32,000 bases of DNA from Candidatus Auribacterota bacterium (GCA_023136205.1 JAGLRQ010000063.1:1-32000), one strand, 5' to 3'; numbered from the stretch's first letter, positions 1-31,193 are shown. The notes: generated by a model not told the origin, from the letters alone. Made by a program: numbers and translations.

Positions 1-605
1 TGAAGATGTACGGAGAGTTTCTCGGTGTGGACTATAAAAGCCTCATATCCGAATATACCATCAGATATGGCGATGCGCTAAAAAAGACAAATAAGAGTGA
101 GAAAAAGGTTGGGCGTTTAAAAGCAATGAATGCCGGAAGAAACTCTCTTAAGCTTTCCAGGCCGGGTACCTTTGTTATAATTTGTGTAGTAGTTTTAATT
201 GGTGTTTTTGTTATTAAATTAGTATTTTTTAGCGGGAGAAGCGAAGACCAGTATTATAAAGATGTTACCTCTCCCATGCCTGCCCAATACCTGGATATCA
301 AGACTGCGTCGGTTAAGCTTCCTGTTGTTCCTTCCCGGGGCGATGCTCAGCATGAAGTGGAAGTGACTGCCTCCGAAGATGTCTGGATAGCCGTGTGGCT
401 GGACGGGAAAGAATTTCCCGCGGGAATACTATCTGCCGGGCAGGGAGAAAAATGGCTTGGCGGAAAAATTCATTTAAAAATCGGCAATGCCGGCGGTCTG
501 AAAGTCAAAGTTGACGGTAAAGCCCTAAAGCCCCTTGGCAAAACAGGCGAAGTCATCCATCTCTACATTGACGATATCGGAGTAAAGACAAAAAAAGCAA
601 ACTAA
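1..605 (+). CDS. rodZ: RodZ-like cytoskeleton/morphogenesis protein, C-terminal part (5' end outside window)
   Basis: The frame is open to the window edge. It shows a basic linker, one hydrophobic TM segment (FVIICVVVLIGVFVIKLVFF) and a DUF4115-like C-terminal domain (VWIAVWLDGK...LKIGNAGGLKVKVDGK), which is the RodZ layout. Confidence 0.6.
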   Translation, partial: KMYGEFLGVDYKSLISEYTIRYGDALKKTNKSEKKVGRLKAMNAGRNSLKLSRPGTFVIICVVVLIGVFVIKLVFFSGRSEDQYYKDVTSPMPAQYLDIKTASVKLPVVPSRGDAQHEVEVTASEDVWIAVWLDGKEFPAGILSAGQGEKWLGGKIHLKIGNAGGLKVKVDGKALKPLGKTGEVIHLYIDDIGVKTKKAN

Positions 606-1736
606 ATGAAACTAATAAATATATCTGTAATTTTTTTAACGGCGGCCCTATTATTTATCCCTCTGAGCTCTTACTCCATCAATTATAATGGGGTCGATAT
701 AAAATTCCGTGGAAGCGCGTCTGAAACCTACGATGATAATATCACTTTCGTTAACGATGATAAGAAAAATGATTTTATAACAAACTTAACCCTTGGGCTA
801 AGCGCCAAATACGAAGGCAAAACTACAACTTTAGAACTTGGCGGCGGCATAACTCAGCAAATCTTTGCCGCTAACCATAATTACAATAATCTCTCAGAAA
901 ACCTGACTTTAAATTTTCAACAGGAATTTTCAAAATATGACAGAATCAGCATAAACAATATTTTTACCCATACTTATGAACCGCGAAGTTTCGAAGATGA
1001 ATTTGGCAGGACAAGCGGCAGGTACGGCTATTACAGAAACAAATTTAATTTTGATTATACAAGGGATATCACCAAACAGTTTTCTGTTACCGCGAAATAC
1101 GCTAACGAAATAGATTATATTTCAAGAGAAGACATGAAAGATTCATATCTGAATAGGGCTGGTATTGAAGCGGATTATTCTTTAAGTTCAACTACTATCC
1201 TGTTTGTTTCATATGATTTTATGAACAGAAAATTTGTCCATGACGATGATTCATCTACAAACTCTATTGCCTCCGGTATAAGGCACTACTTAACCAAACA
1301 AATCTATTTTGACGGTAGAATCGGAGTAGATTTTATAAGGTCTTACAATGATGAAAATTACACCAGGCCGCTTATTTCTGCTTCGATTACTGATGAACTG
1401 GATGAAAACACCCGCCTGAGCATTTCCTTTAAAAAAGAAGATTACACAAGTTCTTATGAGGAAGACCTTTTTAACCACTGGCGGGCATCAGTTCTTTTTA
1501 CCAGACAGTTGGCAGAAAGGCTAAGCTGTTCCCTTTCAGGTTTTTATGGCGAAGGTAAATATGTTTTATTAGACATAAAAGATAAACTTCTGGGAGCAAG
1601 CATCGCCTGCTCTTACGATTTCAGAGAAAACTTAAAAGGAAATTTAAAATACACCTATTCAGATGTAAATTCCACCATTGAATCCCGAAAATATACAAAA
1701 AACACAGTAACTCTTGGATTATCCATAGATTTTTGA
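606..1736 (+). CDS. EPS-locus outer-membrane beta-barrel protein
   Basis: Signal peptide (MKLINISVIFLTAALLFIPLSSYS), alternating Y/G/N/D/T-rich beta-strand pattern and a C-terminal ...LGLSIDF ending in Phe. The ATG directly abuts the rodZ stop, and the gene lies upstream of the Wza-like exporter. Confidence 0.55.
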   Translation: MKLINISVIFLTAALLFIPLSSYSINYNGVDIKFRGSASETYDDNITFVNDDKKNDFITNLTLGLSAKYEGKTTTLELGGGITQQIFAANHNYNNLSENLTLNFQQEFSKYDRISINNIFTHTYEPRSFEDEFGRTSGRYGYYRNKFNFDYTRDITKQFSVTAKYANEIDYISREDMKDSYLNRAGIEADYSLSSTTILFVSYDFMNRKFVHDDDSSTNSIASGIRHYLTKQIYFDGRIGVDFIRSYNDENYTRPLISASITDELDENTRLSISFKKEDYTSSYEEDLFNHWRASVLFTRQLAERLSCSLSGFYGEGKYVLLDIKDKLLGASIACSYDFRENLKGNLKYTYSDVNSTIESRKYTKNTVTLGLSIDF

Positions 1737-1780
1737 TATATTGTATAACCTTTTGATAATTTGTTTTGAACAAGATAGTT

Positions 1781-1901
1781 GCAAAGCGAGCGGTCGTCCT
1801 TCGTCCAAGCGAGCAAAGCGAGCGATCGTCCCTCGTCCGAGCGAGCAAAGCGAGCGATCGTCCTTCGTCCAAGCGAGCAAAGCGAGCGGTCGTCCCTCGT
1901 C
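1781..1901. repeat. Family A tandem array A1 (about 3.8 units of 32 bp: GCAAAGCGAGCGRTCGTCCYTCGTCCRAGCGA)
   Basis: Read directly: head-to-tail units with a strict 32-bp period. The ORF-track N-terminal extension of the next gene (from 1741) is only a translation of this array. Confidence 0.9.
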
Positions 1902-1926
1902 TTTACGTAAAAATGGGAGAAAAGAT

Positions 1927-3018
1927 ATGATAAAGTACACTTTCGCGATTTTACTTACGGCACTTAACTTGGCGCTTCCAACATCGGTTAATGCTGAATA
2001 TGTTATCGGCATAGATGATGTGCTGGAAATAAGCGTGCTTGAGTACGATAATCTCCACACTGTGGCGACAGTTCCGGCAGACGGATTAATATCTTTCCCG
2101 TATATCGGCAATGTCCAGGCTGAAGGCAAGACATTAGATGAGATAAAAGCAGAGATATCAAATAAGCTGTCTGACAGCTATATAAAATATCCGGTTGTTT
2201 CAATCTCTCTTATAAAGTCCCGGAGCAAGAACTTCTTTGTTTATGGCGCGGTCAGTAATCCTAATGCCTACCCGATATCCGATGATATGACTGTTTTAAA
2301 GGCGATATCCGTAGCCGGGGGGCTTACTCCGGATAGCCTCTATGGCAAGATAAATGTCAGGCGTCCGGGAAGAAAAGATGAGCCTGAATATCAAAGCATA
2401 AGCATAGATATAAGAAGTACCATGGAAGGGAAGAGCAAGACAGGTGATATGCTTCTTTTACCCGGAGACATAGTGGTTGTTGAACCGAGCGAAAAGTTTT
2501 TTGTTTACGGCGAAGTTGCCAGGCCCGGGCGGTATTTTCTGGAAGATAACATGACAGTTTTAAGAGCTATTTCAGTATCCGGAGGCCTTACGCCGGGCGG
2601 CCTTTACGGCAGGGTGAATGTCAGGCGTTTACAGAATGATAAACCGGGGTACGAAGATATAGAGATAGATATCAGAGGTACCGCGGGAGGGGCCGGCAAG
2701 ACAGGTGATATGCCTCTTCTGCCCGGAGACATAGTAGTTATTAAACCGAATGAAAAGTTTTTTGTCTATGGCGAAGTTGCCAGGCCCGGACGGTATTTAC
2801 TGGAAGATAACACAACAGTTTTAAAAGCCATATCCATGGCCGGTGGTTTTTCCAAATACGGCTCCTCAAGCCGGATCAAGGTTTTAAAACCAAAAAAAGA
2901 AGAAGCCGGTTACGAAACCATAAAAATAGACATCAAATCCGCCATGAACGGCAGCCCCGAATCAGACATGTTACTCCACCCGGAAGACATTGTAGTAGTA
3001 TCAGAGGGAATTTTTTAG
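1927..3018 (+). CDS. Polysaccharide export protein (Wza/EpsE-like: Poly_export domain plus three SLBB repeats)
   Basis: ATG at 1927 preceded by GGGAGA. Signal peptide MIKYTFAILLTALNLALPTSVNA, a Poly_export-like segment (YVIGIDDVLEISV...ISFPYIGNVQAEGKTLDEIK), then three copies of FFVYGxV..PG.Y......TVL.AIS.AGG... Confidence 0.85.
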   Translation: MIKYTFAILLTALNLALPTSVNAEYVIGIDDVLEISVLEYDNLHTVATVPADGLISFPYIGNVQAEGKTLDEIKAEISNKLSDSYIKYPVVSISLIKSRSKNFFVYGAVSNPNAYPISDDMTVLKAISVAGGLTPDSLYGKINVRRPGRKDEPEYQSISIDIRSTMEGKSKTGDMLLLPGDIVVVEPSEKFFVYGEVARPGRYFLEDNMTVLRAISVSGGLTPGGLYGRVNVRRLQNDKPGYEDIEIDIRGTAGGAGKTGDMPLLPGDIVVIKPNEKFFVYGEVARPGRYLLEDNTTVLKAISMAGGFSKYGSSSRIKVLKPKKEEAGYETIKIDIKSAMNGSPESDMLLHPEDIVVVSEGIF

Positions 3019-3032
3019 TGGGTGATAGTTTG

Positions 3033-3404
3033 ATGAGAAAAGTAAAAAGCGTAAGAGATTTAGAGGTTTATAGAATTGCTTTTGACGTAGCAATGGAGAT
3101 ATATAATCTTTCAAAGGATTTTCCGAAAGAAGAAAAATATTCATTAACTGATCAAATGCGCAGATCTTCCAGATCAATCTGTGCAAATCTTGCGGAAGGT
3201 TGGCGTAAACGAAAATATAAAAAAGTCTTTATAAATAAATTGTCAGATGCGGCACAAGAAGCAGCAGAAACACAGACCTGGTTGGAATTTACCTTAAAAT
3301 GTAACTATATTGATAAAAAGACATTTGAAAAATTAGATGAAAAATACGAACACATATTTGCAATGCTTATAACAATGGAGCGAAAAGCAGATATGTTCTG
3401 TTAA
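3033..3404 (+). CDS. Four-helix-bundle protein (23S rRNA intervening-sequence protein family)
   Basis: Family hallmarks: VRDLEVYRIAFDVAMEIYNLSKDFPKEEKYSLTDQMRRSSRSICANLAEGW. About 120 aa. ATG at 3033 is preferred to the GTG at 3018 that overlaps the upstream stop. Confidence 0.8.
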   Translation: MRKVKSVRDLEVYRIAFDVAMEIYNLSKDFPKEEKYSLTDQMRRSSRSICANLAEGWRKRKYKKVFINKLSDAAQEAAETQTWLEFTLKCNYIDKKTFEKLDEKYEHIFAMLITMERKADMFC

Positions 3405-3592
3405 GCGAGCAAAGCGAGCGGTCGTCCCTCGTCCAAACGAGCAAAGCGAGTAAACGTCCCTCGTCCGAGCGAATGAAATGAGTGGTCGTCCCTCGTCCAA
3501 GCGAGCAAAGCGAGTAAACGTCCCTCGTCCGAGCGAATGAAATGAGTGGTCGTCCCTCGTCCAAGCGAGCAAAGCGAGCGATCGTCCTTCGT
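3404..3592. repeat. Family A tandem array A2 (about 6 units of 32 bp, including an exact 64-bp tandem duplication 3441-3504 = 3505-3568)
   Basis: Read directly. The array begins at the last base of the four-helix-bundle stop codon (TAA 3402-3404) and ends about 20 nt before the next start codon. Confidence 0.9.
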
Positions 3593-3613
3593 AACGAAAG
3601 AGAGGTTAATAAC

Positions 3614-5260
3614 ATGGATACTTATCCCAATTCGAGTGTAGACACCACCACCACATTCCGCGACTACCTGCGCGTGCTTTTCCGGCACAAAGCAGTAATC
3701 GCCATCACTTTTATCACTGTCATGGTAACTGTTTTCATCGGCCTGAAACTTAAAACACCGGTTTATGAGGCCCAGGTTAAAATGCTTATCTCAGCACAAA
3801 AACAGGTCGAAGCGCCCTACTACAGGGAGTTAGGTGGTTATGGCAAAGTTGAAATGGCCCTTACCCAGAGTGAGATTGTGAAGTCAAATCCTGTAATTGA
3901 GCGTAGTGTCAAAGCTCTTAGGCTATACGGTCGTCCGCTTGATTATGAAAAAAACTTTTGCTCTCCGCTTAAAAAGCGTTTGGTAGACTGGCGGACAAAA
4001 ACGCTTGAAGCCAAACTCGAAACTCTTCCCACACAACAAAAGCAAACTCTTCTATTTCGTAAAGCGGTAGAAGATTTAAAAGCAAGCACAGAAGTCGCGC
4101 CGATAAGAGATACTAACTTATTTACCATAAGCGTCAGTGATTTCAGCCCTGTTGGCTCAGCTATAACCGCTAATGTGGTAAGCCGTTCATATATTATATT
4201 TGACCTTGAACAGCAGCTTGCTGAGCTTCAGATAAAATATGGCGAAAAACATCTCGCGGTCAAACAGTTAAAGGACAATATTGAGAAGATGACCGCGAAC
4301 CTTAATGGCGAACCGATTTCTGCTATAGAAGCAATCGGCCCTGCGAGCGTTAAAATTATTGAGCAGGCGCAGGTTCCTATTAAGCCGACCGGAACCCCTA
4401 AACTTCTTACGCTTGTCCTTGCTTTTTTTATGAGTTGGTTTTTAGGCGTTATGCTTGCCTTCGGATTTGAGTATATGGATCATACTTTCAAATCGCCTCA
4501 GGACGTGGAAACATTCCTTAATCTTCCGCTTCTGGGCTCTATCCCGAAGAAAAAGGTTAAAGAAAAAAGATTAGTTCAGGATGCGAAGGTGATAACCCCT
4601 TATACCTCTTCTTATCAGACGATTTCAGACCAGATACAGTTGCTTATAAAAGAGAAGAACTTAAAATCTATTTTGATGACTTCTGCCTTAGAGCAGGAGG
4701 GAACTAGCACTATTATTGCTAATCTTGGCATTTGTTTAACTCACAAAGCAGGCTGTAAAGTGCTTATCATTGATGCCAATTTGAGGAATCCCTCTATGCA
4801 TACCGCTTTTAAAGTTTCTAATAATCAGGGGCTGAGTGATATTCTTGAGGGCAAGAGTTCTTTTGAAGAGGCTGTTAAAGCAGTAGATATTTATCCAATT
4901 CGTGATAATTCGAGTGCGGTTCGTGAAAATTCGTGCCTGAATGTTCTAACTGCCGGTTCTACCGGGCTTAATCCTATTACGCTTTTAGACTCTTCAAAAA
5001 TGGTTGATGTAATTAAAAAAGCCGGGAAAAAATATGAAATAATCCTGATTGACTGTACCAATTTGAGAAATTTCCGAGATGCCTCTGCAATTTCTTCACT
5101 TAACGACGGTATTGTTCTGGTAGTAAACGAAGGTAAAACCAGGCGCCAGGTAGTCAAATCAGCCTTAATACCCCTGGAGAAAAAGAAAGCCAACCTCATT
5201 GGTGTTATTTTGAATAACCGCACTTTTCCTATACCAAAAGGAATTTACAACCGTGTATAA
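3614..5260 (+). CDS. Polysaccharide co-polymerase (Wzz/GumC-like chain-length determinant) fused to a BY-kinase-like P-loop domain with a degenerate Walker A
   Basis: ATG at 3614 after AAAGAGAGG. Two TM segments flank a long coiled periplasmic region. The C-terminal domain aligns to the Wzc kinase core (VLIIDANLRNP, YEIILIDCTN, GVILNN), but Walker A reads EGTST rather than GK(S/T). Confidence 0.8.
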   Translation: MDTYPNSSVDTTTTFRDYLRVLFRHKAVIAITFITVMVTVFIGLKLKTPVYEAQVKMLISAQKQVEAPYYRELGGYGKVEMALTQSEIVKSNPVIERSVKALRLYGRPLDYEKNFCSPLKKRLVDWRTKTLEAKLETLPTQQKQTLLFRKAVEDLKASTEVAPIRDTNLFTISVSDFSPVGSAITANVVSRSYIIFDLEQQLAELQIKYGEKHLAVKQLKDNIEKMTANLNGEPISAIEAIGPASVKIIEQAQVPIKPTGTPKLLTLVLAFFMSWFLGVMLAFGFEYMDHTFKSPQDVETFLNLPLLGSIPKKKVKEKRLVQDAKVITPYTSSYQTISDQIQLLIKEKNLKSILMTSALEQEGTSTIIANLGICLTHKAGCKVLIIDANLRNPSMHTAFKVSNNQGLSDILEGKSSFEEAVKAVDIYPIRDNSSAVRENSCLNVLTAGSTGLNPITLLDSSKMVDVIKKAGKKYEIILIDCTNLRNFRDASAISSLNDGIVLVVNEGKTRRQVVKSALIPLEKKKANLIGVILNNRTFPIPKGIYNRV

Positions 5261-5282
5261 CTCTTAATTTTTAAGAAATAGT

Positions 5283-5479
5283 GCGTAGCCGTAACCTCCC
5301 CCGAGAGGACGATTCACGAGATACGGCTTCTAAGCTACTGCTTTTTTAATTTGTCCGAGCGAGTGAAACGAGCGGTCGTCCTACGTCCCAGCGAACAAAG
5401 TGAGCGATCGTCCTTCGTCTATCGTTTCTGGTGACTTGCAATTGGTGACTTTTTATCTTGGTGACTTGACAGTGTGGCC
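5283..5479. repeat. Composite junction module C1-A3-B1
   Basis: C1 (5283-5347): GCGTAGCC..CCTCCCCCGAGAGGACGA..CGAGATACGGCTTCTAAGCT. A3 (5353-5419): two family A units. B1 (5428-5479): CTGGTGACTTGCAATTGGTGACTTTTTATCTTGGTGACTTGACA. The same parts recur at 9877-10132 and 10896-11390. Confidence 0.8.
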
Positions 5480-5494
5480 ATTTCCGTATATAAT
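5466..5494 (+). promoter_or_regulatory. Sigma70-type promoter for the AbiEi/AbiEii/PLD operon
   Basis: TTGACA (5466-5471), a 17-nt spacer, then TATAAT (5489-5494), 30 nt upstream of the ATG at 5524. The -35 box is the end of the third TGGTGACTT repeat of module B1. Confidence 0.6.
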
Positions 5495-5523
5495 CATTAT
5501 TGATTATATAGAGAAACAATACT

Positions 5524-6162
5524 ATGGACTATGCAGAATTCAAAAAGAGGTTTTCGAAACTTCCGCTTATCGTCGGAAGAGACGCTGTCCAGCTTGAAAA
5601 AGCCGGGCAGGCGATGCGTAACCAGCTCAATCGCTGGCAGTCGAAGGGGCTTATTGTCAGGCTCAAAAAAGGCATCTATATGCTTAACAGGGACGACAGG
5701 AGGGTAGAACCAAGCAGAATCTTCCTTGCGAACCGGCTTTATGGCCCGTCATATGTCAGCTTAGAGTTTGTGTTAAATTTTTACGGGCTTATCCCTGAGC
5801 GCGCGGCTGATGTGACTTGTGTCACGACAAAAAAAACCGCGCGATTTATAAATGAATTCGGGACTTTTATCTACCAGCATATCAAGCCGGATGCCTTCAG
5901 GGGATTTAAGTCGGCGAAGGATGAGGCTGGTTTGCCGGTATTCATTGCCGAGCCGGAAAAAGCGGTTGTGGATTTTATCTATTTGAATTTATCAAAATTC
6001 GCGAAGCCGGAAAAAGAGCAGTTCGCGCAGTCTTTTCGGTTCCAGAATATGGAAAAATTAAGCGCGAAGAAGATTATGTTTTACGCGAGCCTTTTCAGTA
6101 ACCGGAAACTTCTCTCTGCCGCTAAGGAATTTTGCGTGTTTATTAAGGAAAACAAGAGATGA
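5524..6162 (+). CDS. abiEi: AbiEi-family antitoxin / wHTH transcriptional regulator (type IV TA)
   Basis: N-terminal wHTH pattern (...QLNRWQSKGLIVRLKKGIYML), about 210 aa. A 4-nt ATGA overlap links it to a downstream AbiEii-type gene. Confidence 0.75.
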   Translation: MDYAEFKKRFSKLPLIVGRDAVQLEKAGQAMRNQLNRWQSKGLIVRLKKGIYMLNRDDRRVEPSRIFLANRLYGPSYVSLEFVLNFYGLIPERAADVTCVTTKKTARFINEFGTFIYQHIKPDAFRGFKSAKDEAGLPVFIAEPEKAVVDFIYLNLSKFAKPEKEQFAQSFRFQNMEKLSAKKIMFYASLFSNRKLLSAAKEFCVFIKENKR

Positions 6163-6962
6163 TCGAAGTATTAAGACAGCAGTATAAAGATGAAATGTCC
6201 GCCGAGGATAAGGTCAACCGTGTCCGCGAGTTCCTCCAGATTATCGTGCTAAAGGCTCTGTACGAAAAGGATTATTTTGAGAAAGTCGCTTTTACCGGTG
6301 GAACGGCGCTCAGGGTGCTTTACGGCCTCAGGAGGTTTTCTGAGGATCTTGACTTTTCGCTTGTCTCCAGGAGCGGTTATGACTTTAAGCTGTTGAATGA
6401 GGAATTGCTCCGCGAGTTTAAGTTAAACGGGCTCCACGCCAATTCAAAACCAAAAGCCGAAAAAACTGTCCACAGCATGATGATCAAATTTCCGGGGCTG
6501 TTAAACGAATTAGGGCTTTCCGCTTTTAAAGAGCAGAACCTTTCCGTAAAATTTGAGGTAGACACAAATCCGCCAAAGGGAGGTAAGCTTGAGAATACGG
6601 TTGTCAACAAGGCGTTTATCCTGAATATTAAGCATTTTGATCTGTCGTCGCTCCTGGCGACGAAACTGCATGCGTGCTTTTTCAGGAAATATACAAAGGG
6701 CAGGGATTTTTATGACCTTCTCTGGTATGCGGGTAAGGGCATCAAACCGAATTTGCCGCTGTTTAATAATGCGATAGAACAAACGCAAGGCCGTTCGTCG
6801 GCCATCACAAAGGATAATTTGAAGGCATTTATCACGGATAGGATCGAAAAGGTTGATTTTGAGGCCGCGAAAAAAGACGTCGAGCGGTTTCTCGAGGACA
6901 AGAGCGAACTCAAGCTTTTTAAAAAAGAGGTATTTGAGGCCGCTGTTTCTGGAGTTTGCTAA
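6159..6962 (+). CDS. abiEii: AbiEii/AbiGii-family nucleotidyltransferase toxin (DUF1814)
   Basis: Motif FTGGTALRVLYGLRRFSEDLDF (GGTAL...R.S.D.DF) and a downstream KGRDFYDL motif. Confidence 0.8.
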   Translation: MIEVLRQQYKDEMSAEDKVNRVREFLQIIVLKALYEKDYFEKVAFTGGTALRVLYGLRRFSEDLDFSLVSRSGYDFKLLNEELLREFKLNGLHANSKPKAEKTVHSMMIKFPGLLNELGLSAFKEQNLSVKFEVDTNPPKGGKLENTVVNKAFILNIKHFDLSSLLATKLHACFFRKYTKGRDFYDLLWYAGKGIKPNLPLFNNAIEQTQGRSSAITKDNLKAFITDRIEKVDFEAAKKDVERFLEDKSELKLFKKEVFEAAVSGVC

Positions 6963-8140
6963 TAAGGGTGTCTTCCTTGTTTAAAAAATTATTTTTAACG
7001 TATATTATTTGTTTTTTATTTTCATCTTCTCCTCTTTTTGCCGATATTCTTTGCGGCAAAACATATCAGCAAACCCTTCATGAATATATAGCCCGGGCTA
7101 AAAGCTCAATTGTAGTCGCGATGTACTTCATTATTTTGGAGCCGGGAGGCAAAGGCCCAATCAATGAATTGGTTGATGATCTTGTAGATGCTGAAAAGCG
7201 CGGTGTTGATGTCAGGGTGATTTTGGAAGATTCAAAGTTTAAAGAAAATCGTCTTGCTTATCAAAAATTAAAAGAAAACGGTGTTAATGTATATTTTGAT
7301 ACTCCCGAACATCTTTTACATGTAAAGGGTGTTGTTGTTGATGACAGGTATGTCTTTATAGGCAGTGCAAACTGGTCAAGGGCGGCAATAGAAGATAATT
7401 ATGAAGTTACATATTTTGAGGATTCTTCTCGCGATGCTATTGCTTTTAAGCAGTATGTCGAGAAAATCCCGTTTCAGGATAAAGATATGTTTCTACCTTC
7501 ATTTGAAGGTGTGGTTATTTCTTCGGATTTCCTTCTTTTGCCTGAAACAGGCCGCAGTCTTCTTAAGAGCCGGGCTGTAAAGCAGTTAGATCTTTATTTG
7601 TTGTTACGCAAGATACAGTATGAGAACGGAGAGGTTAGTTTTAGTGTTGATTATGATGTTTTGGCTAAAGCAATGGGTTATACCGTTCGCGGTAAGTTAG
7701 GTAAATACCGTAATCAGCATCATTACTTCTACGAAAGGATACATCGCTCATTAGCTCGTCTCAGGCGTTATGGCCTTATTGATTATAAAAAAGGGGTAGT
7801 TTCCTTAAATCTTAAAGATAATCTCTCTATAGTAATTCCCTTTGAATACTGGGATTATCCCGGGAAGCTCTCTATGCGGGCTAAGTATATGTATTTGATT
7901 TGTCTGTACGAAGCCGGCCGTTCCAGCCGGTATCCCTGCTGGTTTCGCAGCCAGAAGGATATGGCAAAACTTTATGGTATAAGTGATACTACCATTTCTT
8001 TAGGCCTTCTGGAGCTTGAGGAGAAGGGTATAATCGAGGTTTTGAGGGACAGGCCAACTCCCCCCGACTTTTCCAACAGGAAAGCCAATGTATATAAAAT
8101 GCTCGGTTTGCCTCAAAAAACAACTGATGTCCCCATTTAA
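6956..8140 (+). CDS. Secreted or membrane-anchored PLD-family (single HKD, Nuc-like) protein with two C-terminal winged-helix domains
   Basis: HKD motif HVKGVVVDDRYVFIGSANWS (7329-7388). N-terminal hydrophobic leader FKKLFLTYIICFLFSSSPLFA. The C-terminal half has two Rep/DnaD-like wH units (LDLYLLLRKIQ...LARLRRYGLI and KYMYLICLYEA...MAKLYGISDTTISLGLLELEEKGII). There is no ATG start; TTG at 6956 or TTG at 6977 after AAGGG. Confidence 0.65.
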   Translation: MLIRVSSLFKKLFLTYIICFLFSSSPLFADILCGKTYQQTLHEYIARAKSSIVVAMYFIILEPGGKGPINELVDDLVDAEKRGVDVRVILEDSKFKENRLAYQKLKENGVNVYFDTPEHLLHVKGVVVDDRYVFIGSANWSRAAIEDNYEVTYFEDSSRDAIAFKQYVEKIPFQDKDMFLPSFEGVVISSDFLLLPETGRSLLKSRAVKQLDLYLLLRKIQYENGEVSFSVDYDVLAKAMGYTVRGKLGKYRNQHHYFYERIHRSLARLRRYGLIDYKKGVVSLNLKDNLSIVIPFEYWDYPGKLSMRAKYMYLICLYEAGRSSRYPCWFRSQKDMAKLYGISDTTISLGLLELEEKGIIEVLRDRPTPPDFSNRKANVYKMLGLPQKTTDVPI

Positions 8141-8277
8141 CTCGTCCCCACGTCCCACGTCCAAGCGAGTGCAACGAGCGATCGTCCCACGTCCTTCGTC
8201 CCTCGCGTCCCACGTCCAAGCGAGTGAAACGAGCGCTCGTCCCTCGTCCCCACGTCCCACGTCTTTCCGTCCCTCGT
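8141..8277. repeat. Family A array A4 (heptad-expanded variant)
   Basis: Starts 1 nt after the PLD stop codon: CTCGTCC CCACGTCC CACGTCC AAGCGAGTGCAACGAGCGAT CGTCC CACGTCC TTCGTCC ..., in the same orientation as A1-A3. Confidence 0.85.
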
Positions 8278-8305
8278 TTCTGTGGTCTAACTCATTTTTT
8301 ATGTA

Positions 8306-8334
8306 TTGCAATTTAGTTATAACTAAGTTATACT
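8306..8334 (+). promoter_or_regulatory. Sigma70-type promoter with a palindromic operator; predicts a leaderless transcript for the second AbiE pair
   Basis: TTGCAA (8306-8311), a 17-nt spacer, then TATACT (8329-8334). The ATG at 8341 lies only 6 nt after the -10 box, with no SD. The spacer contains the perfect 12-bp palindrome TAGTTATAACTA (8314-8325). Confidence 0.5.
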
Positions 8335-8340
8335 TCATAT

Positions 8341-9129
8341 ATGAATAAAGAAATTTACAGCATATTGCAAGTAAGGGAGCTGTTCCATCTTGAGTTCTTA
8401 CGCTGGCTAAGTCGTAAAATTAAGTCCGAATTCTATGCTCTCAAAGGGGGAACGAACCTGAGATTTTTCTTTAAAAGCTTCCGTTATTCAGAAGATATGG
8501 ATCTGGATGTGAATACGATTCCCGTAGAAAAGCTAAAAGACATTGTCATGGAAATCTTAAACGCCAGGTCATTTATAGACAATCTGAGGACACTTAATAT
8601 TGTCCAAATCATTCCGCCTAATATCGCAAAGGCCAAGCAGACGCAAACAACCCAGCGTTTCAAGATTCATCTTATTACATGTTCAGGGGAAGATCTTTTT
8701 ACTAAGGTTGAGTTTTCACGGCGAGGGAGGAGAGGCTCAGTTGCCGTTCATCCCATATCTGATACAATCCTGCGGTTATATAAGCTGGCGCCGCTGGTGG
8801 TTCCGCATTATGACATTCATTCCGCGGTGTCACAAAAGATCGATGCCCTTGCCGCCCGCGCGGTGACCCAGCCCCGCGATATTTTTGACCTATTTATATT
8901 AAGTTCTCAATATGATGCTCCGGAAGGTAAGCAAACTAAGTATACAGCTCAAATAGCCAAGGCTCACGAAAACATATTCACAATCTCGTTTGAACAATTT
9001 CGAGACACGGTTGTTTCATATCTGTCAGCTGAAGATCAAGCGGCCTATGGCAATCCTCCTATGTGGGATGAAATAAAATTGAAAACAGCGCAATTTTTAG
9101 AAGAAATAAGGGACTGCAAACATGTCTAG
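8341..9129 (+). CDS. abiEii: AbiEii-family nucleotidyltransferase toxin (second copy, divergent)
   Basis: LKGGTNLRFFFKSFRYSEDMDLDV motif and a later PRDIFDL motif. Confidence 0.75.
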   Translation: MNKEIYSILQVRELFHLEFLRWLSRKIKSEFYALKGGTNLRFFFKSFRYSEDMDLDVNTIPVEKLKDIVMEILNARSFIDNLRTLNIVQIIPPNIAKAKQTQTTQRFKIHLITCSGEDLFTKVEFSRRGRRGSVAVHPISDTILRLYKLAPLVVPHYDIHSAVSQKIDALAARAVTQPRDIFDLFILSSQYDAPEGKQTKYTAQIAKAHENIFTISFEQFRDTVVSYLSAEDQAAYGNPPMWDEIKLKTAQFLEEIRDCKHV

Positions 9130-9730
9130 ACAGAATATATTGGTTTATATAAAACAGTTAAACCGCCCGGTTTTTACGACGAGTGAAGTTATGGCCTTGT
9201 CCGGGAAATCACCGTCCACCATCACGCAATCTCTGAATTATCTGCAAAAACAGGGATTGCTTATCAAAGTTCAGCGGGGAATATGGGCCGAGGCCGACAG
9301 CCGGATTAGCCCGTACAGCATCATCCCTTTTTTAACGCCTCGGCACCGGGCTTATGTTTCATTTGTCAGTGCTTTGCATCTGCATGGGATGATTGAACAG
9401 ATTCCTCAGGTGATTACCCTGGCCTCAACGTCTCATACCAGGACCGTTTATACAAAAATGGGGACGTTTGCAATCCATCAGATAGCGCCGCAATTCTTTA
9501 AGGGGTTTGATTGGTATCACGGGGATGGGAATTTTCTGATTGCCCAACCGGAAAAGGCCCTGGTGGACAGCCTATATCTCTCAGCGCACAAAAAAAAGCA
9601 ATTCGGCTTTTTCCCGGAAATGTCCTTTCCAAAGTCGTTTAGCTTCGCCAGAGCACGGAAGTGGGTGAAATGTATTTCCATTCCGAGTGTGAGGCTATAT
9701 GTTGAGAAAAAGTTAATTGAGTTAAGTTAG
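9122..9730 (+). CDS. abiEi: AbiEi-family antitoxin / wHTH regulator (second copy, downstream of its toxin)
   Basis: N-terminal wHTH (FTTSEVMALSGKSPSTITQSLNYLQKQGLLIKVQRGIWA), about 200 aa, with an 8-nt overlap onto the upstream AbiEii gene. Confidence 0.7.
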   Translation: MSRQNILVYIKQLNRPVFTTSEVMALSGKSPSTITQSLNYLQKQGLLIKVQRGIWAEADSRISPYSIIPFLTPRHRAYVSFVSALHLHGMIEQIPQVITLASTSHTRTVYTKMGTFAIHQIAPQFFKGFDWYHGDGNFLIAQPEKALVDSLYLSAHKKKQFGFFPEMSFPKSFSFARARKWVKCISIPSVRLYVEKKLIELS

Positions 9731-9876
9731 CCCGCGAACAAGGGTAAAGCCTGATTGTAGATACTGCCGCTCCATGGATAAATCTGCGGCTTACCCACAG
9801 AGCTTGGATAACCCTTTGGGTTAACCACACTATCCACAATTCTACTACCACTATTTTTTGCTTTCTTCTTCTTAAC

Positions 9877-10132
9877 GAGATAGTTCGAAGCGAAGCGTAG
9901 CCTCCCCCGAGGGGACGAGATACTAACAACGAGATACGGCTTCTAAGCTTTTTGTTTTTTTTGCTTCTAACGAGATACGATTCACGAGCTACGAGATACG
10001 GCTCTTAAACGAGATACGGCTTTTAGGATACTGTTTTTAATTCGTCCAAGCGAGTAAAACGAGCAATCGTCCCACGTCTTCCCGTCCCACGTCCCAGCGA
10101 GTGAAACGAGCGGCCGTCCTTCGTCCCTCGTC
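9877..10132. repeat. Composite junction module C2-A5
   Basis: C2 (9877-10040): GCGTAGCCTCCCCCGAGGGGACGAGATAC, then four ACGAGATACGGCTYYTAR units. A5 (10041-10132): family A units in the same orientation as the others. Confidence 0.8.
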
Positions 10133-10259
10133 TCTTCCCAACACCTATCTTTCCTATAGACTATAAGCTCATAAATATGCTTTAATTTCTCTCAGTTTAC
10201 TATATACTACAACGAAGGTATATCGTCTTATTCTATGTGTAAAATTGAGGAGGTGTCAA

Positions 10260-10553
10260 ATGAGAAATAAATCAATATATGTTCAATTGAAAGATGCTAA
10301 GTTTAAGAGTTTGCTTGGACTTTACAAAGTCGACAGAATAGCCATTTTTGGCTCGTATGCTAAAAGTAAACAGCGGCGAAAGAGTGATATTGACTTCTTA
10401 GTCGAATTTAAAAAAGGAGCAGATCTTTTAGACCAGGTAGGATTAAAGCTCGATTTAGAAAAGTTGTTGTCTAAAAAGGTTGATGTTGTAACACCTAAAT
10501 CTTTGAGTAAATATATTAAAAAGAAAGTAATAAAAGAGGCGGTGTATTTATGA
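10260..10553 (+). CDS. mntA: MNT-type nucleotidyltransferase antitoxin
   Basis: ATG at 10260 after GAGGAGG. Motif IFGSYAKSKQRRKSDIDFLVEF (GS...SDxD). ATGA overlap with the downstream HEPN gene. Confidence 0.8.
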   Translation: MRNKSIYVQLKDAKFKSLLGLYKVDRIAIFGSYAKSKQRRKSDIDFLVEFKKGADLLDQVGLKLDLEKLLSKKVDVVTPKSLSKYIKKKVIKEAVYL

Positions 10554-10891
10554 GTAAAGATTATAAGGTATATTTACATCATATTCTTGATGCAATTAAA
10601 ACTATAGAGAAATACATCAAAGGACTCAGTGAAAATGACTTTTATAAAAATAAGCTTATTCAAGATGGGGTGATCAGAAATCTTGAAATAATAGGAGAAG
10701 CTGCTAAAAATGTGCCTAAAGAGATACAGAATGAATATTCCCACATTGAGTGGAAGGCAATATCAGGCATGAGGGATGTTCTTATTCATGATTATTTTGG
10801 TGTTGATCTGGAACGAGTTTGGGGAGTTTTGGTAAATAGAATTTCACAATTAAAAAAAGATATATCAGGGATTATTAAAAATAAGAGTTAG
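10550..10891 (+). CDS. hepT: HepT (DUF86/HEPN) toxin
   Basis: HEPN Rx4-6H motif (MRDVLIHDY) plus RNLEIIGEAAKN. About 113 aa, paired with MNT. Confidence 0.8.
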   Translation: MSKDYKVYLHHILDAIKTIEKYIKGLSENDFYKNKLIQDGVIRNLEIIGEAAKNVPKEIQNEYSHIEWKAISGMRDVLIHDYFGVDLERVWGVLVNRISQLKKDISGIIKNKS

Positions 10892-10895
10892 ATTT

Positions 10896-11219
10896 AAACG
10901 AGATACTGCTTTTTACTCTTTTTCTATCTGGTGACGTGGTGACTTGCAACTGATGACTTTTTATCTTGGCAACTATTTCTATCTTTTAAACTGGTGACCT
11001 GGCAACTTTTCCACCTTGCAACTGTGGACTAATTTATTCGTCCCACATCCGAGCGAGTGAAACGAGCGCTCGTCCTTCGTCCCCACGTCCCACGTCCAAG
11101 CGAGTGAAACGAGCGGTCGTCCTTCCATCCCTCACGTCCCACGTCCAAGCGAGTAAAACGAGCGATCGTCCTTACGTCCCACGTCCTTCCGTCCATCACG
11201 TCCCACGTCCTCCCGTCCC
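10896..11219. repeat. Composite junction module C3-B2-A6
   Basis: C3 fragment AAACGAGATACTGC (10896-10909). B2 (10921-11030) carries the core GGTGACTTGCAACTGATGACTTTTTATCTTGG. A6 (11038-11219) is the longest heptad-expanded family A array. Confidence 0.85.
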
Positions 11220-11312
11220 TTGACTTTCGCCGATAAATATGGTCTAATTTCCCTTTGATTATTTACGAGATAGTGTCTTAAAGTGGTAAATAAATAGGCC
11301 GTGGCTCTATTT

Positions 11313-11390
11313 ATTCTATCTGGTGCCTTGGTGACTGGTGACGTGGTAACTGTTCTATCTTGTGACGTGGTGACTTGCAACTGGTGACTT
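11313..11390. repeat. Family B module B3
   Basis: TTCTATCTGGTGCCTTGGTGACTGGTGACGTGGTAACTGTTCTATCTTGTGACGTGGTGACTTGCAACTGGTGACTT. The 22-nt core GGTGACTTGCAAYTGRTGACTT is shared with B1 and B2. Confidence 0.8.
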
Positions 11391-11445
11391 GAATAAATCA
11401 GACCTGTCCCCATTTATTCTGATTTATCAAAAAGAGGTTTTACCG

Positions 11446-12462
11446 ATGTTCTCAATACTACTACTACCCCTATTCGCGGCGATGTTCCTGGCCATTAACA
11501 TGGGCGGGAGCGGGACAGCTCCGGCTTTTTCTTCCGCCTATGGAGCGAACCTAATCCGTAAAGATTTGATCCCCGGATTATTCGGAGCTTTTGTTCTATT
11601 AGGTGCAATCATGGCCGGTAAAGAAGTTACCTTAACAATTGGAAAGGGGATTTTGCCGGATAGTTCAATGACTTTAACTTTGACCACTATTATATTGCTG
11701 TCCATTGCCTTATCAATGCTATTCGCGAACATACTAAGAGTTCCTCAGTCAACAAGCCAGTCAACGGTATTTGCTTTAGTCGCGGTTGCTGTATACCAAA
11801 ACAATTTACAAACTAAAAAATTGCTCTTTGAAATTATCCCTGCCTGGTTTATACTTCCAATTATTTCTTTTTTTCTGACTTTAATCCTGGGCAAATATAT
11901 CTATCGTCCGCTAAAGAAGAAAAAGCTGATAAATTTCAAACAACTAAAGGTACATCCGGCATTGCGCCTGGGCGTAATTTTTTCATCCTGTTACGTAGCG
12001 TTTTCTATCGGTGCCAATAACGTTGCTAATGCCTCCGGCCCGATTCACAGCCTGCTGGTTAACCAGTTAAATATTCAAGATAGCGAAACTAATTATTTGA
12101 TATGTATGATAGTCTCGACTTTAATCATCGCGCCCTGTTTTGCTCTGGGCAGTTCAATATTCGGCTCCCGCATCCTTAAAACAACCGGAAAAGAAATAAT
12201 CGAATTTGGGCCTATAGGCGCCTTAGCCATCTCTCTTGTAACCGGAAGCTTATTACTCCTGGCTTCAGTTACTCGAGGAATTCCAACTGCTCTTGCTCAG
12301 CTTAATGTAGGGGCAATAATTGGCCTGGGCGCGTATAAAGTCGGTATAAAAGAAATAATGACCCGAACATCGGTGAAGAAAATTTTTATGGTCTGGGTTA
12401 TATCGCCGGCTATCTCGTTTTGTATAGCATTGTTGTTGGCGTTTTTGATGGTCAAGAAATAA
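11446..12462 (+). CDS. PiT-family (PHO4) inorganic anion permease, phosphate or possibly sulfate
   Basis: ATG at 11446 after AAAGAGG. Polytopic membrane protein. The second-half signature [13 protein letters not shown] is present; the first-half signature is divergent ([17 protein letters not shown]). Confidence 0.7.
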
Positions 12463-12494
12463 CAGGGAAAATATTAAAAGATGGAGAAAATAGA

Positions 12495-13532
<1,038 letters not shown>

Positions 13533-13535
13533 TAC

Positions 13536-13621
13536 GGTAATCGTCAATCGGTGACGGCTAAAAAGACGTAACCGAAAAACGATAACCGATACGGGCATCG
13601 TAACCGAAAAACGATAAACGA
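13536..13621. repeat. Left direct repeat of the four-helix-bundle cassette (family D; a 32-nt-period array continues to 13653)
   Basis: GGTAATCGTCAATCGGTGACGGCTAAAAAGACGTAACCGAAAAACGATAACCGATACGGGCATCGTAACCGAAAAACGATAAACGA. CGTAACCG recurs at 13567, 13599 and 13631. Confidence 0.9.
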
Positions 13622-13653
13622 TACGGGTTGCGTAACCGAAAGACGAATAAATA

Positions 13654-14043
13654 GTGGAAAAAAAGATCACAAGTTTCAGAGACTTAGATGTTTATCAAGG
13701 AACTTATGCTTCAATGTTAAAAGTAATGAAGGAAATCGTTCCAAAGTTACCGGAACGTGAGAAATATGATTTAAAAGATCAGCTTAGTAGATCAAGTAAA
13801 TCCATTCCAAGGCTAATAGCTGAAGGATATGCAAAGAAACATCAAAAAGCAGGTTTTCAAAAATATATTGATGATGCAATGGCTGAATGTAATGAGACTG
13901 TAGTGAGTCTTTGTCAATCAAGAGATATTTATCCTGAAAATGTTGATATTAATTTGTGTGAAGAGTTAATAGATGATTACGATAAAGCTGGCCGTCAATT
14001 ATACAAGCTAGGTCAGGCATGGAATACATTTAAGAAAAGGTAA
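13654..14043 (+). CDS. Four-helix-bundle protein (23S rRNA intervening-sequence protein family), second divergent copy
   Basis: GTG start. FRDLDVYQGTYASMLKVMKEIVPKLPEREKYDLKDQLSRSSKSIPRLIAEGY matches the family pattern. Confidence 0.75.
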   Translation: MEKKITSFRDLDVYQGTYASMLKVMKEIVPKLPEREKYDLKDQLSRSSKSIPRLIAEGYAKKHQKAGFQKYIDDAMAECNETVVSLCQSRDIYPENVDINLCEELIDDYDKAGRQLYKLGQAWNTFKKR

Positions 14044-14130
14044 TCGTCAATCGGTGACGGTGACGGCCAAATAGACGTAACCGAAAAACGATAACCGATA
14101 CGGGCATCGTAACCGAAAAACGATAAACGA
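14039..14130. repeat. Right direct repeat of the four-helix-bundle cassette (family D)
   Basis: Near-identical to 13536-13621, with an extra TGACGG hexamer. It starts 2 nt upstream of the cassette stop codon TAA (14041-14043), which lies within the repeat. CGTAACCG occurs at 14076 and 14108 (32-nt spacing). Confidence 0.9.
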
Positions 14131-14147
14131 AAAACCTAGGAGCTTAT

Positions 14148-30284: not shown

Positions 30285-30285
30285 T
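30229..30285. repeat. 57-bp direct repeat, copy 1 (the 3' end of the exosortase CDS including its stop)
   Basis: AGCCGCCGAATACACCGAAAGATATCGAGAAAAGAGTAAAAACTACAAATAAATAGT. It recurs at 31110-31166 with 3 substitutions. Confidence 0.9.
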
Positions 30286-30331
30286 GATAATAGGGACAGA
30301 TCAGATTTATTGGCGCGCAAAGATAATTTAT

Positions 30332-30361: not shown

Positions 30362-30390
30362 TTGACAAAGTTGTATCTAATAAATAAAAT
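30362..30390 (+). promoter_or_regulatory. Sigma70-type promoter for the PEP-CTERM gene
   Basis: TTGACA (30362-30367), a 17-nt spacer, then TAAAAT (30385-30390). The ATG at 30431 is preceded by AAGAGGATGGGG. Confidence 0.5.
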
Positions 30391-30430
30391 TAATTTTTTA
30401 AAACTAACTTTTAAAAGAGGATGGGGTATT

Positions 30431-31166: not shown

Positions 31167-31193
31167 ATTAAATATTTTCAAAAAATATAATAA

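Follow-up and report, generated by a model that had tools for sequence, protein, structure and literature searches.

Six intergenic tandem arrays (A1-A6) were found in the window, by which we mean the whole 32,000-nt stretch of Candidatus Auribacterota DNA that was analysed. They are best explained as a structured repeat, REP-like or derived from an IVS arm, that has grown by slippage and forms recombination-prone junctions in a small island of defence cassettes, a reading to which we give a probability of about 0.55. The repeated module also forms an arm of widespread, IVS-like selfish elements and part of attC sites, and so resembles a signal folded from a single strand more than plain satellite DNA. 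The arrays and their neighbours are listed below.

1781..1901, + strand: A1, 3.8 units of 32 nt with 92% matches (TRF)
3033..3404, + strand: four-helix-bundle gene (S23p/IVP; PF05635 9e-37, TIGR02436 2e-33)
3403..3592, + strand: A2, about 6 units, period 32/64 (TRF)
5281..5345, + strand: X module (ACGAGAT/ACGGCTT heptad-like) upstream of A3, with more copies at 9890-10040 and 10894-10913
5353..5419, + strand: A3, 2 units, between the ACGAGAT-type module (5281-5345) and the GGTGACTT module with the abiEi promoter
5420..5494, + strand: G module of GGTGACTTGCAA repeats; its last part is a perfect TTGACA-17-TATAAT abiEi promoter
5524..10891, + strand: accessory cassettes abiEi-abiEii-PLD/HTH (DrmC-like), abiEii-abiEi and MNT-HepT, with arrays between them
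8141..8277, + strand: A4, 2 hairpins with expanded CGTCCCA-type heptads between them, period 55 (TRF)
10041..10132, + strand: A5, heptads with 2 hairpins, downstream of ACGAGAT heptad modules (9890-10040)
10920-11030 and 11314-11400: related G modules
11038..11219, + strand: A6, with 3 hairpins and extensive runs of heptads; periods 47/49 and 7-8 (TRF)

The pattern GTCCRAGCGAGYRAARCGAGC (at most 3 mismatches) identified 17 units in the window, every one of them on + and located within 1803-11163, and none in shuffles, while a relaxed hairpin regex matched 17 times on + and 0 times on -. The motif CGTCC occurs 61 times on the + strand of the window, 54 of them within arrays, and GGACG occurs 10 times on the same strand and never within an array. 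The unit was absent from the rest of the window and from 2.9 kb upstream and 7.3 kb downstream on the same contig; in terms of REP-type dispersal, 17 units lie in 9.4 kb and 0 in the other ~33 kb of contig examined. The sequence-only reading, which had described one co-oriented, intergenic family with no member past 11.3 kb, was thus borne out. Between the porin gene and wza, A1 takes up the spacer, stopping 25 nt short of the wza ATG; its unit consists of CGTCC-YT-CGTCC-RA, the hairpin GCGAGC-AAA-GCGAGC and G-RT. A2 overlaps the four-helix-bundle gene's TAA (3402-3404) and stops 21 nt short of the wzc ATG, and A4 begins 1 nt past the TAA (8138-8140) of the PLD-HTH gene, as had been claimed for both stop codons. 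The hairpins of A2 are of two alternating variants, C:G/AAA and A:T+T:A/GAA, and its perfect 64-nt periodicity spans 3438 to 3578, including the 64-bp duplication reported earlier, which is exact (3441-3504 = 3505-3568). The strict 32-bp period proposed earlier holds for A1-A3 but not for A4-A6, where periods of 47-55 were found; TRF placed A4 at 8142-8277 and A6 at 11039-11219, and a separate TRF call falls within A5 (10068-10096). A6 is bordered by GGTGACTTGCAA modules on both sides. The X module may be a diverged analogue of a 5' arm, but its complementarity to the arrays is not significant. The arrays had been said to contain no credible ORF; public annotation does have an ORF of 55 aa spanning A6 on the - strand, and this ORF, whose product is repeat-derived, is most likely spurious. 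No Rfam family or rRNA was found in the window.

One module comprises two single-stranded CGTCC heptads and a 6-bp mini-hairpin, in which the AGCGAG and CGAGCG halves pair as GCGAGY-RAA-RCGAGC. The pairs are G:C, C:G, G·A, A·G, G:C (or A:T) and Y:R around a RAA/GCA triloop; the central tandem G·A/A·G is invariant within the window's units and the triloop is purine. Among the 17 window units, pair 12:16 is C:G in 7, T:A in 10 and mixed in 0, pair 11:17 changes from G:C to A:T in three, and pair 7:21 does so in one. Compensatory changes were observed at 4 stem pairs, and the stem is a 6-bp imperfect palindrome like that of REP. When 30 different sequences anchored by their flanks were compared, pairing was seen in 86.7% of cells vs 66% in shuffles, and double-change cells number 23 vs 6.4 expected, a value reached by 0 of 500 shuffles; slid controls paired at 17-59%. 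In some variants the G·A positions become Watson-Crick pairs. The two halves, taken earlier as a direct repeat alone, are therefore the inverted halves of a covarying mini-hairpin. By nearest-neighbour energies the isolated hairpin reaches -0.7 kcal/mol as DNA and -1.8 to -3.5 as RNA, which is no better than shuffles, so the argument for its stability comes from textbook knowledge: GNA triloops and tandem G·A pairs stabilise hairpins. We infer that the active strand is the hairpin (CGTCC) strand and not its complement, because the other strand turns G·A into C·T and the purine-rich triloop is always on the CGTCC strand. As a DNA or RNA oligonucleotide, the hairpin strand reads d/r(AGCGAGYRAARCGAGCG).

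The family is not unique to this genome. A core pattern scan of species-representative genomes gave at least 118 stretches, and the 21-22-nt core (GTCC-N-hairpin) recurs in three settings, namely heptad elements, BIME-like blocks and attC sites. In Omnitrophota, Nitrospirota, Planctomycetota and others, the core makes up the 3' arm of heptad elements that are palindromic, have (GGACGAN)n as their 5' arm and often enclose a four-helix-bundle (S23p/IVP) gene; complete two-arm elements were found in Nitrospirota, Omnitrophota and Planctomycetia. As RNA, four complete elements gave z = -1.9 to -5.9, all with the same predicted Y shape, an apical hairpin above an outer stem, with the mini-hairpin branching off to the side. 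BIME-like inverted blocks of the form 'CGTCCTAG + GNA-loop hairpin' are present in Betaproteobacteria and Gemmatimonadaceae. In six gamma-proteobacterial matches IntI genes lie inside the same 8-kb loci as the core (tblastn), and in 5/5 loci checked (Pseudomonas-type integrons) the core is antisense to the cassette ORFs and corresponds to the attC bottom strand. Strand-locking to the flanking genes, claimed earlier, applies to 17/17 units here but is not a general rule, since among 27 other loci the module is sense in ~11 and antisense in ~9. Of ~37 modules dispersed in other genomes, only 1 adjoins an IVP gene and the neighbours are housekeeping genes, so that the association with cassettes is local to the window. 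Direct tandem arrays are almost unique to this lineage (1 unrelated match in a metagenome scan), so the array form may itself be neutral.

The arrays had not been recognised as REP/BIME, ERIC, MITE, CRISPR or a classical iteron set. They are indeed not CRISPR, nor classical attC, but the family is related to IVS-type and REP/BIME-like elements. CRISPR was rejected: the units are head-to-tail and the DNA between hairpins consists of repeated heptads, not unique spacers. Chromosomal attC sites of Pseudomonas/Stutzerimonas share the identical GTCCC-AGCGAG-Y-GAA-R-CGAGCG core and the same Y:R covariation; there the folded bottom strand is predicted to carry the core as a side branch, with the same predicted Y fold as complete heptad elements. 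Those sites lie between co-oriented cassettes, as A3-A6 part the AbiE, PLD-HTH and MNT-HepT cassettes here. Unlike attC, the arrays have no RYYYAAC/GTTRRRY boxes, overall palindrome or IntI, and the core is sense to the cassettes here, whereas it is antisense in integrons. With an R''/R' regex, the only match was a chance pair inside abiEi, the arrays having none; tblastn with an IntI1 query gave no integron integrase match in the window (best E = 0.5). Classical attC identity was thus rejected for want of R''/R' boxes, IntI and a complementary arm.

Like REP/BIME/REPIN sequences, the module combines a short imperfect hairpin with a conserved single-stranded motif beside the stem and is strand-asymmetric; in other genomes it is dispersed between housekeeping genes in either orientation, and in Betaproteobacteria and Gemmatimonadaceae it forms blocks, including inverted ones. 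It differs in that the 5' flank is GTCC-N-A (CTAG in Betaproteobacteria) and never GTAG, no RAYT gene was seen among the window ORFs, 17/17 window copies are direct with no alternation (inverted blocks being found only in distant relatives), and the stem has just 6 bp, two of the pairs non-canonical. The cyanobacterial STRR and Beggiatoaceae TAACTGA repeats are intergenic tandem heptamers of several phyla with unknown function (PMC4679880). A4-A6, which are intergenic and consist mostly of CGTCCCA-type heptad runs, resemble these repeats but differ from them in sequence and in the joining of heptads and a conserved hairpin into a 32-nt higher-order unit.

The IVP gene at 3033-3404, distantly related to the DGR protein Avd, has A2 as its 3' flank, and the other five arrays (A1, A3-A6) have no such gene. 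Four further independent IVP genes (L127, L130, L132 and L135) are preceded by (GGACGAN)n and followed by (NTCGTCC)n, the latter accompanied by the hairpin or not, and in L099 the hairpin module lies directly 3' of the IVP gene. Flank complementarity around IVP was z = -4.8 in L127, -6.3 in L132 and -2.4 in L135, and not significant in L130 (z = -0.7). In the window, complementarity between the sequence upstream of the IVP gene and A2 was z = -0.16, with no stem around the ORF; no complementary partner arm for the arrays was found there and duplex z-scores were not significant. An IVS-like stem cannot form here because the arrays have no partner arm. The arrangement resembles the 23S rRNA IVS of the Coxiella and Leptospira type, in which a PF05635/TIGR02436 ORF lies within the loop of a terminal-inverted-repeat stem, and both relatives of the locus and unrelated operons place IVP between (GGACGAN)n and (NTCGTCC)n. 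To our knowledge, a GA mini-hairpin branch is not a described IVS feature. In the Coxiella IVS, RNase III cuts the stem formed by the terminal inverted repeats, and the S23p ORF has beside it tandem heptamers whose number differs between strains (PMC4990558). The window arrays differ in lying in intergenic spacers of protein-coding operons, not as a helix 25/45 insertion in 23S rRNA, and in having the 3' arm only, in direct tandem.

Recombination at the arrays was assessed from four relatives. L137 (~90% identical) is without A1 and has 2.5 units at A2 (vs ~6), in agreement with the earlier view that the arrays are still changing. In strain L138 the match to the window sequence breaks off 13 nt ahead of the IVP stop. 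In L125 a GxxExxY gene replaces IVP and A2, and the L125 wzc-abiEi spacer is a mosaic with the crossover inside a unit. L127 is without the accessory cassettes, and a gene fragment of the GDP-mannose dehydratase family (gmd-like) comes immediately after wzc. No array-length polymorphism was seen among the six assemblies of one and the same strain, which are not independent samples. By comparison, breakpoints fall at arrays and one mosaic joint has its crossover within a unit; the cassette swap, the strain breakpoint and the mosaic joint lend comparative support to the earlier suggestion of recombination hot spots.

Other explanations were weighed against the same observations. An intercistronic RNA element transcribed with the operon, which we consider unlikely, would let adjacent cistrons differ in stability, in the manner of REP elements and IVS stems; by analogy, the array hairpins, or dsRNA formed with a GGACGAN run elsewhere, would be RNase III sites or 3'-end/exonuclease barriers. 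The 17 units, all sense to co-directional genes, fill stop-to-RBS spacers, and IVP-bearing and most two-arm elements elsewhere are likewise sense inside operons; IVS stems are RNase III substrates (PMC4990558), and + strand RNA of A1, A4 and A6 folds better than shuffles (z = -2.1 to -3.2). The RNA processing or stability role raised earlier is plausible by analogy with such stems, but its partner arm is absent from the window along with GGACG from the arrays, single hairpins are weak as RNA, no terminator-like sites were found at the arrays, and the module is antisense to flanking genes in ~9/27 other loci and to cassette ORFs in integrons. It is more doubtful that CGTCC plus hairpin is a site-specific or HUH-type ssDNA recombination site in an integron-like array without canonical attC, at which a tyrosine recombinase, a RAYT-like Y1 transposase or an IVP-protein complex would insert and excise cassettes. 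The identical 22-nt core on the recombinogenic bottom strand of real attC, the Y fold predicted for both attC and complete heptad elements, and the direct module copies between co-oriented cassettes are consistent with it, as are the 97%-identical direct repeats of ~73-90 bp around a second IVP gene, as after Campbell-type integration, and the inverted arms around IVP genes, as REPs around RAYT genes. Nevertheless, no integrase, Y1 transposase (Y1_Tnp) or other recombinase was found among the window ORFs, the arrays have no R''/R' boxes, relative to the cassette genes the core faces the other way in integrons, and modules elsewhere are mostly between housekeeping genes.

It is very unlikely that the C-rich, G-poor A4-A6 are Rho-dependent terminator or insulator tracts, acting as rut sites that stop transcription of each defence cassette, with A1-A3 as by-products of the same repeat. 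The case is one of composition, (G-C)/(G+C) being -0.36 in A4, -0.25 in A5 and -0.35 in A6 over 92-182 nt and about 0 in A1-A3, and of the position of A4-A6 after stop codons and before promoter-like sites of the next cassette; yet the same modules are antisense elsewhere, termination at A1 and A2 within an operon would be harmful, and the conserved hairpin is left unexplained. Phased dsDNA protein-binding sites, or an antisense GGACG-rich RNA titrating CsrA/Rsm, both proposed earlier, now seem highly improbable. Phasing agrees with the 32-bp period of A1-A3 but is weakened because the period differs between arrays (32, 47, 49, 55), and the covariation indicates selection on intrastrand pairing, not duplex sequence. 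The CsrA sponge has in its favour one promoter-like site on the - strand (10259-10230, 11/12 matches) directed into A5; the other arrays gave no antisense promoter, - strand RNA of A1, A2 and A6 folds no better than shuffles, and a canonical G4 motif occurs just once.

Under the preferred explanation, a REP-like or IVS-arm-derived repeat, the module would be the 3' arm of small structured elements that form a widespread extragenic family; their complete form has a complementary GGACGAN 5' arm, a predicted Y fold and often an S23p/IVP gene in the loop, as in 23S rRNA IVS. Here the 5' arms are absent and the 3'-arm module is amplified head-to-tail. Head-to-tail amplification itself is shown by the exact 64-bp duplication and by the differing unit numbers in close relatives, and slipped-strand or unequal recombination is its probable mechanism. 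No evidence was seen for a dedicated host function of the tandem form; the module may act as folded ssDNA, as in attC bottom strands with the identical core, or as RNA in the operon transcript. The arrays lie at junctions at which small selfish or defence cassettes (IVP, GxxExxY, AbiE, MNT-HepT) have been gained, swapped or reshuffled, and would provide portable homology for cassette recombination.

The repeat unit of the six intergenic arrays (A1-A6) is made up of CGTCC heptads and a GCGAGY-RAA-RCGAGC core, and a degenerate 21-mer for the unit core was searched for in the whole window with at most 3 mismatches. A total of 17 matches were obtained, all on the + strand and all within 1803-11163, versus none in shuffled sequence. 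Of the 61 CGTCC pentamers on the + strand, 54 lie in arrays; the complement is present 10 times and never in an array. The arrays delimited by TRF were as follows.

Repeat arrays in the window
1781-1901, + strand: array A1, period 32, 3.8 copies
3403-3592, + strand: array A2, period 32/64
8142-8277, + strand: array A4, period 55
~10041-10132, + strand: array A5
11039-11219, + strand: array A6, periods 47/49 plus heptads

The other 20 kb of the window yielded no unit, and neither did the same contig over 2.9 kb upstream and 7.3 kb downstream of the window. The sequence-only reading, which described a single + strand family confined to 1781-11219 with nothing past 11.3 kb, was therefore right on both points. 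The exact 64-bp tandem duplication that it reported in A2 was recovered as well, with perfect 64-nt periodicity over 3438-3578, and so was the placement at stop codons: the start of A2 overlaps the stop codon of the preceding gene and A4 begins 1 nt past a stop. From the array end to the next start codon there are 25 nt at A1 and 21 nt at A2. The arrays had also been said to hold no credible ORF; a public gene call does place a 55-aa ORF over A6 (11029-11196, - strand), but its translation is repeat-derived and rich in arginine and glycine, and the call is most likely spurious. Rfam at gathering thresholds returned no family across the whole window, a permissive Rfam scan of 1-15000 gave nothing at the arrays and no model for the core, and a literature search with the core sequence in both orientations retrieved no papers.

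Alignment of the 17 units revealed that AGCGAG-Y-RAA-R-CGAGCG is self-complementary, with the pairs G7:C21, C8:G20, G9·A19, A10·G18, G11:C17 and Y12:R16 closing a loop of 3 nt (AAA, GAA and once GCA). Pair 12:16 is C:G in 7 of the 17 units and T:A in the other 10, never mixed; three units have A:T at pair 11:17, and one has it at pair 7:21. The core is a hairpin: these changes are complementary and do not occupy matching sites of a direct repeat. The halves AGCGAG and CGAGCG noticed earlier are thus real, but they pair, with compensatory changes, in a way that goes beyond a direct repeat. Covariation was then measured on all sequences in the retrieved loci bounded only by the flanks GTCY-N-A ... 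G-N1-2-CGTC, a selection made on the flanks alone to avoid circularity. Among the 30 distinct sequences, 86.7% of cells paired versus 66.0% in shuffles, and 23 double-sided changes were counted versus 6.4 expected; none of 500 shuffles matched the observed pairing and covariation, and slid controls gave 17-59%. The two G·A positions are Watson-Crick in some variants, e.g. GGTCGC-AAA-GCGACC. The unit therefore consists of heptads plus a selected hairpin, and the conserved strand, that of CGTCC, is the one bearing the G·A pairs and the purine-rich loops. GNA triloops and tandem G·A pairs have established special stability. Nearest-neighbour energies of the isolated hairpin (-0.7 kcal/mol as DNA, -1.8 to -3.5 kcal/mol as RNA) were no better than those of shuffles, so stability is not arguable from these parameters. 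A second, overlapping hairpin, ACGA-GCGR-TCGT, was dropped by eye, since neither A2 nor other lineages conserve it.

The genes of the window make up a polysaccharide locus of the exosortase type (porin, wza, wzc, gmd, fcl, EpsH, a flippase and glycosyltransferases) broken up by small accessory genes, in the order [A1] wza-IVP [A2] wzc [A3] abiE-PLD [A4] abiE [A5] mnt-hepT [A6] pho4, where IVP denotes the S23p/four-helix-bundle gene (PF05635, TIGR02436).

Accessory genes in the window
3033-3404: four-helix-bundle S23p/IVP gene (IVP1)
6956-8140: NucT/DrmC-like PLD nuclease fused to a C-terminal HTH_36, after an AbiE pair and directly upstream of A4; may act in defence or in DNA processing at repeats
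13654-14043: second IVP gene, between gmd and fcl
31284-31676: GxxExxY gene (PDDEXK_3, TIGR04256)
Within the array region: two AbiE pairs and one MNT-HepT pair

Several other repeats were recorded in the same locus. The second IVP gene is flanked (13537-14135) by direct repeats of another 32-bp-period family, CGTAACCGAAAAACGATAAACGATACGGGCAG, with 97% identity across 73 nt and a full extent of about 90 bp; they run in the same direction and are not inverted, the arrangement that a circle would be expected to leave on integrating through recombination inside the repeat. The GxxExxY gene is preceded by a 32-nt inverted repeat of ~10-bp units (31110-31141 / 31194-31225), and an unannotated ORF at 30362-30991 lies between the two copies of a 62-bp direct repeat (30229-30290, 31110-31171; 92% identity). 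The arrays are accompanied by ACGAGAT/ACGGCTT heptads (X modules; 5281-5345, 9890-10040 and 10894-10913) and by GGTGACTTGCAA repeats (G modules; 5420-5494, 10920-11030 and 11314-11400), the latter containing repeated -35-like hexamers and ending in a perfect TTGACA-17-TATAAT promoter at 5466-5494. A promoter-like TTGACA-18-TAGAAT (11/12 matches, 10230-10259, - strand) overlaps the MNT gene start and points leftward into A5. A perfect AATCTCA heptad is present in 3.6 copies at 14782-14806 within the fcl-like epimerase ORF (14148-15206), where a different number of copies would alter the frame, which makes a slippage switch or a recent insertion possible. In related Omnitrophota, intergenic DNA is likewise a patchwork of many heptad families.

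Comparison with loci of other genomes showed that close relatives differ at the arrays both in copy number and in the genes alongside. L137, 88-91% identical in nucleotides over porin-wza-IVP, lacks A1 and has 2.5 units at A2 versus 6 in the window, which bears out the earlier view that array copy number is still changing; no length polymorphism was found among six same-strain assemblies, all from one study. In L138, identity is 99.6% over 810 nt and breaks off 13 nt short of the IVP stop codon; other heptads (ACGTCT) and another downstream gene follow. In L125 (Wzc 86% identical) the place of IVP and A2 is taken by a GxxExxY gene with AATTTGTG repeats, and four segments of the window are combined in its wzc-abiEi spacer, a mosaic with a crossover inside a unit.

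Window segments in the L125 spacer
9868-10078: X region
End of A5
11015-11083: G/A6 start, 95.7% identical
5376-5600: A3 end and promoter

L127 (Wzc 64% identical) has an empty element with two arms, 5' (GGACGAN)n and 3' (NTCGTCC)n, upstream of wza at the site of A1, and an IVP pseudogene between two such arms; its wzc is followed at once by part of a gmd-like gene (GDP-mannose dehydratase family), and defence cassettes are absent from that junction. Neither IVP nor arrays were found in L126 (Wzc 68% identical).

In species-representative genomes the core pattern (GTCC-N-hairpin) was found in at least 118 stretches, which were grouped by their flanks. The first group comprises integron attC sites of Pseudomonas, Stutzerimonas, Shewanella, Marinospirillum and others, with the pattern CTAAC...GGGGCCGGC-TTC-GCCGGTCCC-AGCGAGTGAAACGAGCG-...GTTAG. 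Integron integrases, 45-68% identical to IntI1, lie in six 8-kb loci of this type, and cassette ORFs are antisense to the core motif in all five loci checked; the sites are therefore genuine attC, and the core occupies their recombinogenic bottom strand. The conserved GA mini-hairpin stands beside the apical stem on that strand in chromosomal-integron attC sites of L008, L017, L058, L068, L087, L104, L109, L110 and other gamma-proteobacteria, and in L058 and L068 T..A and C..G hairpin variants coexist in one locus. In the second group the core lies between TCGTCC-type heptads (Omnitrophota, Nitrospirota, Planctomycetia, Desantisbacteria, Saganbacteria and deltaproteobacterial MAGs), and among the matches listed a complementary GGACGAN run stands just 5' of it in 11 of 37 loci. 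The third, from Betaproteobacteria, Casimicrobium and Gemmatimonadaceae, has tandem CGTCCTAG units plus a variable perfect hairpin (loop GAA, GCA, GTA or AAA) with an inverted block upstream, a BIME-like layout. The last contains long Atopobiaceae palindromes and scattered single matches, which may be due to chance. Four complete two-arm elements gave RNA fold z values of -1.9 to -5.9 and a Pseudomonas attC -3.7, and a common Y shape is predicted for both: an apical hairpin with GTCC(C) at the end of its 3' strand sits on an outer stem, and the mini-hairpin branches off on the 3' side. The module thus belongs to a cross-phylum family including IVS-like elements (IVS, intervening sequence) and attC sites. 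Direct tandem arrays of the unit are rare, a tandem pattern matching one contig, of the Gemmatimonadaceae type, in JGI metagenomes. The neighbours of dispersed modules are ordinary genes (e.g. RecJ, PolX, NAD synthase, PriA), in mixed orientation. In the Acidimicrobiia L010, L036, L043 and L116, a stem ending in GTCCC plus AGCGAGCGAAGCGAGCG lies directly upstream of rplK and rpmG.

IVP homologues are very numerous (~8000 matches scored); each of the best 120 has an identity of 75% or more, and most lie on 1-2-kb contigs, such short contigs arising because repeats flank these genes. In every additional context examined the gene is co-oriented within a housekeeping or polysaccharide operon. In L127, L130, L132 and L135/L136, (GGACGAN)n precedes the IVP gene, overlapping its start region, and (NTCGTCC)n follows it, usually broken by a GCGAAGC-type mini-hairpin. 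Flank complementarity was significant in L127 (z = -4.8), L132 (z = -6.3) and L135 (z = -2.4) and not in L130 (z = -0.7). [quoted passage not shown] Among the matches listed, an IVP gene stands beside the module in 1 of the 118 genome loci (L099, hairpin module just 3' of the gene). The association is therefore one-way, IVP genes bearing arms and most arms having no IVP gene, and most elements are "empty", like ORF-less IVSs or REPINs. The window itself holds the 3'-arm module only, in direct orientation throughout; the region upstream of IVP1 showed no complementarity to A2 (z = -0.16). The X modules before A3, A5 and A6 were considered as the absent 5' arm and rejected (duplex z of +0.24, -1.4 and -1.8, not significant).

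We classify the arrays as kin to structured extragenic repeats and IVS-like elements. They differ from REP/BIME in having no GTAG, no alternating orientation and no RAYT seen among the ORFs of the window, from rRNA IVSs in lying outside rRNA with no stem in the window, and from integron attC in the lack of R boxes and IntI, on which ground they were rejected as attC sites; each of these nevertheless shares defining sub-features with them. An orphan 3' arm would have been amplified into arrays by slippage or unequal exchange, and the arrays may serve as portable homology where cassettes are gained, swapped and permuted.

Different observations speak for RNA and for single-stranded DNA as the active form. 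The sense orientation in the window and in the two-arm and IVP elements, together with the RNase III precedent, points to RNA; the core on the attC bottom strand, the triloop type, the mixed orientation to genes elsewhere and a positive GC skew, a weak hint that the lagging strand is templated by the + strand, point to single-stranded DNA. The phased binding sites on duplex DNA proposed from the sequence alone were not borne out, because the period varies from 32 to 55. The C-rich A4-A6 could additionally be Rho-utilisation tracts, as their composition would allow, and a G-quadruplex on the - strand was discarded, a single canonical motif being present. Less certain than the classification, and more interesting, is the possibility of a common single-strand signal linking IVSs, REP-like blocks and attC. 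In its full form, to which we give a probability of only about 15%, GTCC-N-(GA mini-hairpin) would be a cross-phylum, strand-specific single-stranded DNA signal that the bottom strands of attC share with BIME-like blocks and with heptad elements of the IVS-like kind, and the S23p/IVP proteins (Avd relatives) between inverted arms would be its cognate binding or mobility factor, a pairing parallel to that of RAYT and REPIN.

For annotation, the repeat arrays account for spurious ORF calls over them. The presence of the 22-nt core on the bottom strand of real attC sites ties together IVS, REP/BIME-like and attC elements, which are normally treated apart, and the link provides a short nucleic-acid motif open to binding and structure experiments. 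To our knowledge, how S23p/IVP genes and rRNA IVSs move and what the protein does have been unknown for about 30 years. The window and its relatives suggest that IVS-like elements reside mainly outside rRNA, as heptad-armed hairpin elements in operons with a conserved mini-hairpin, and a single-stranded signal with an IVP factor, if true, would explain the spread of IVS-type elements and their ORFs into rRNA genes and operons.
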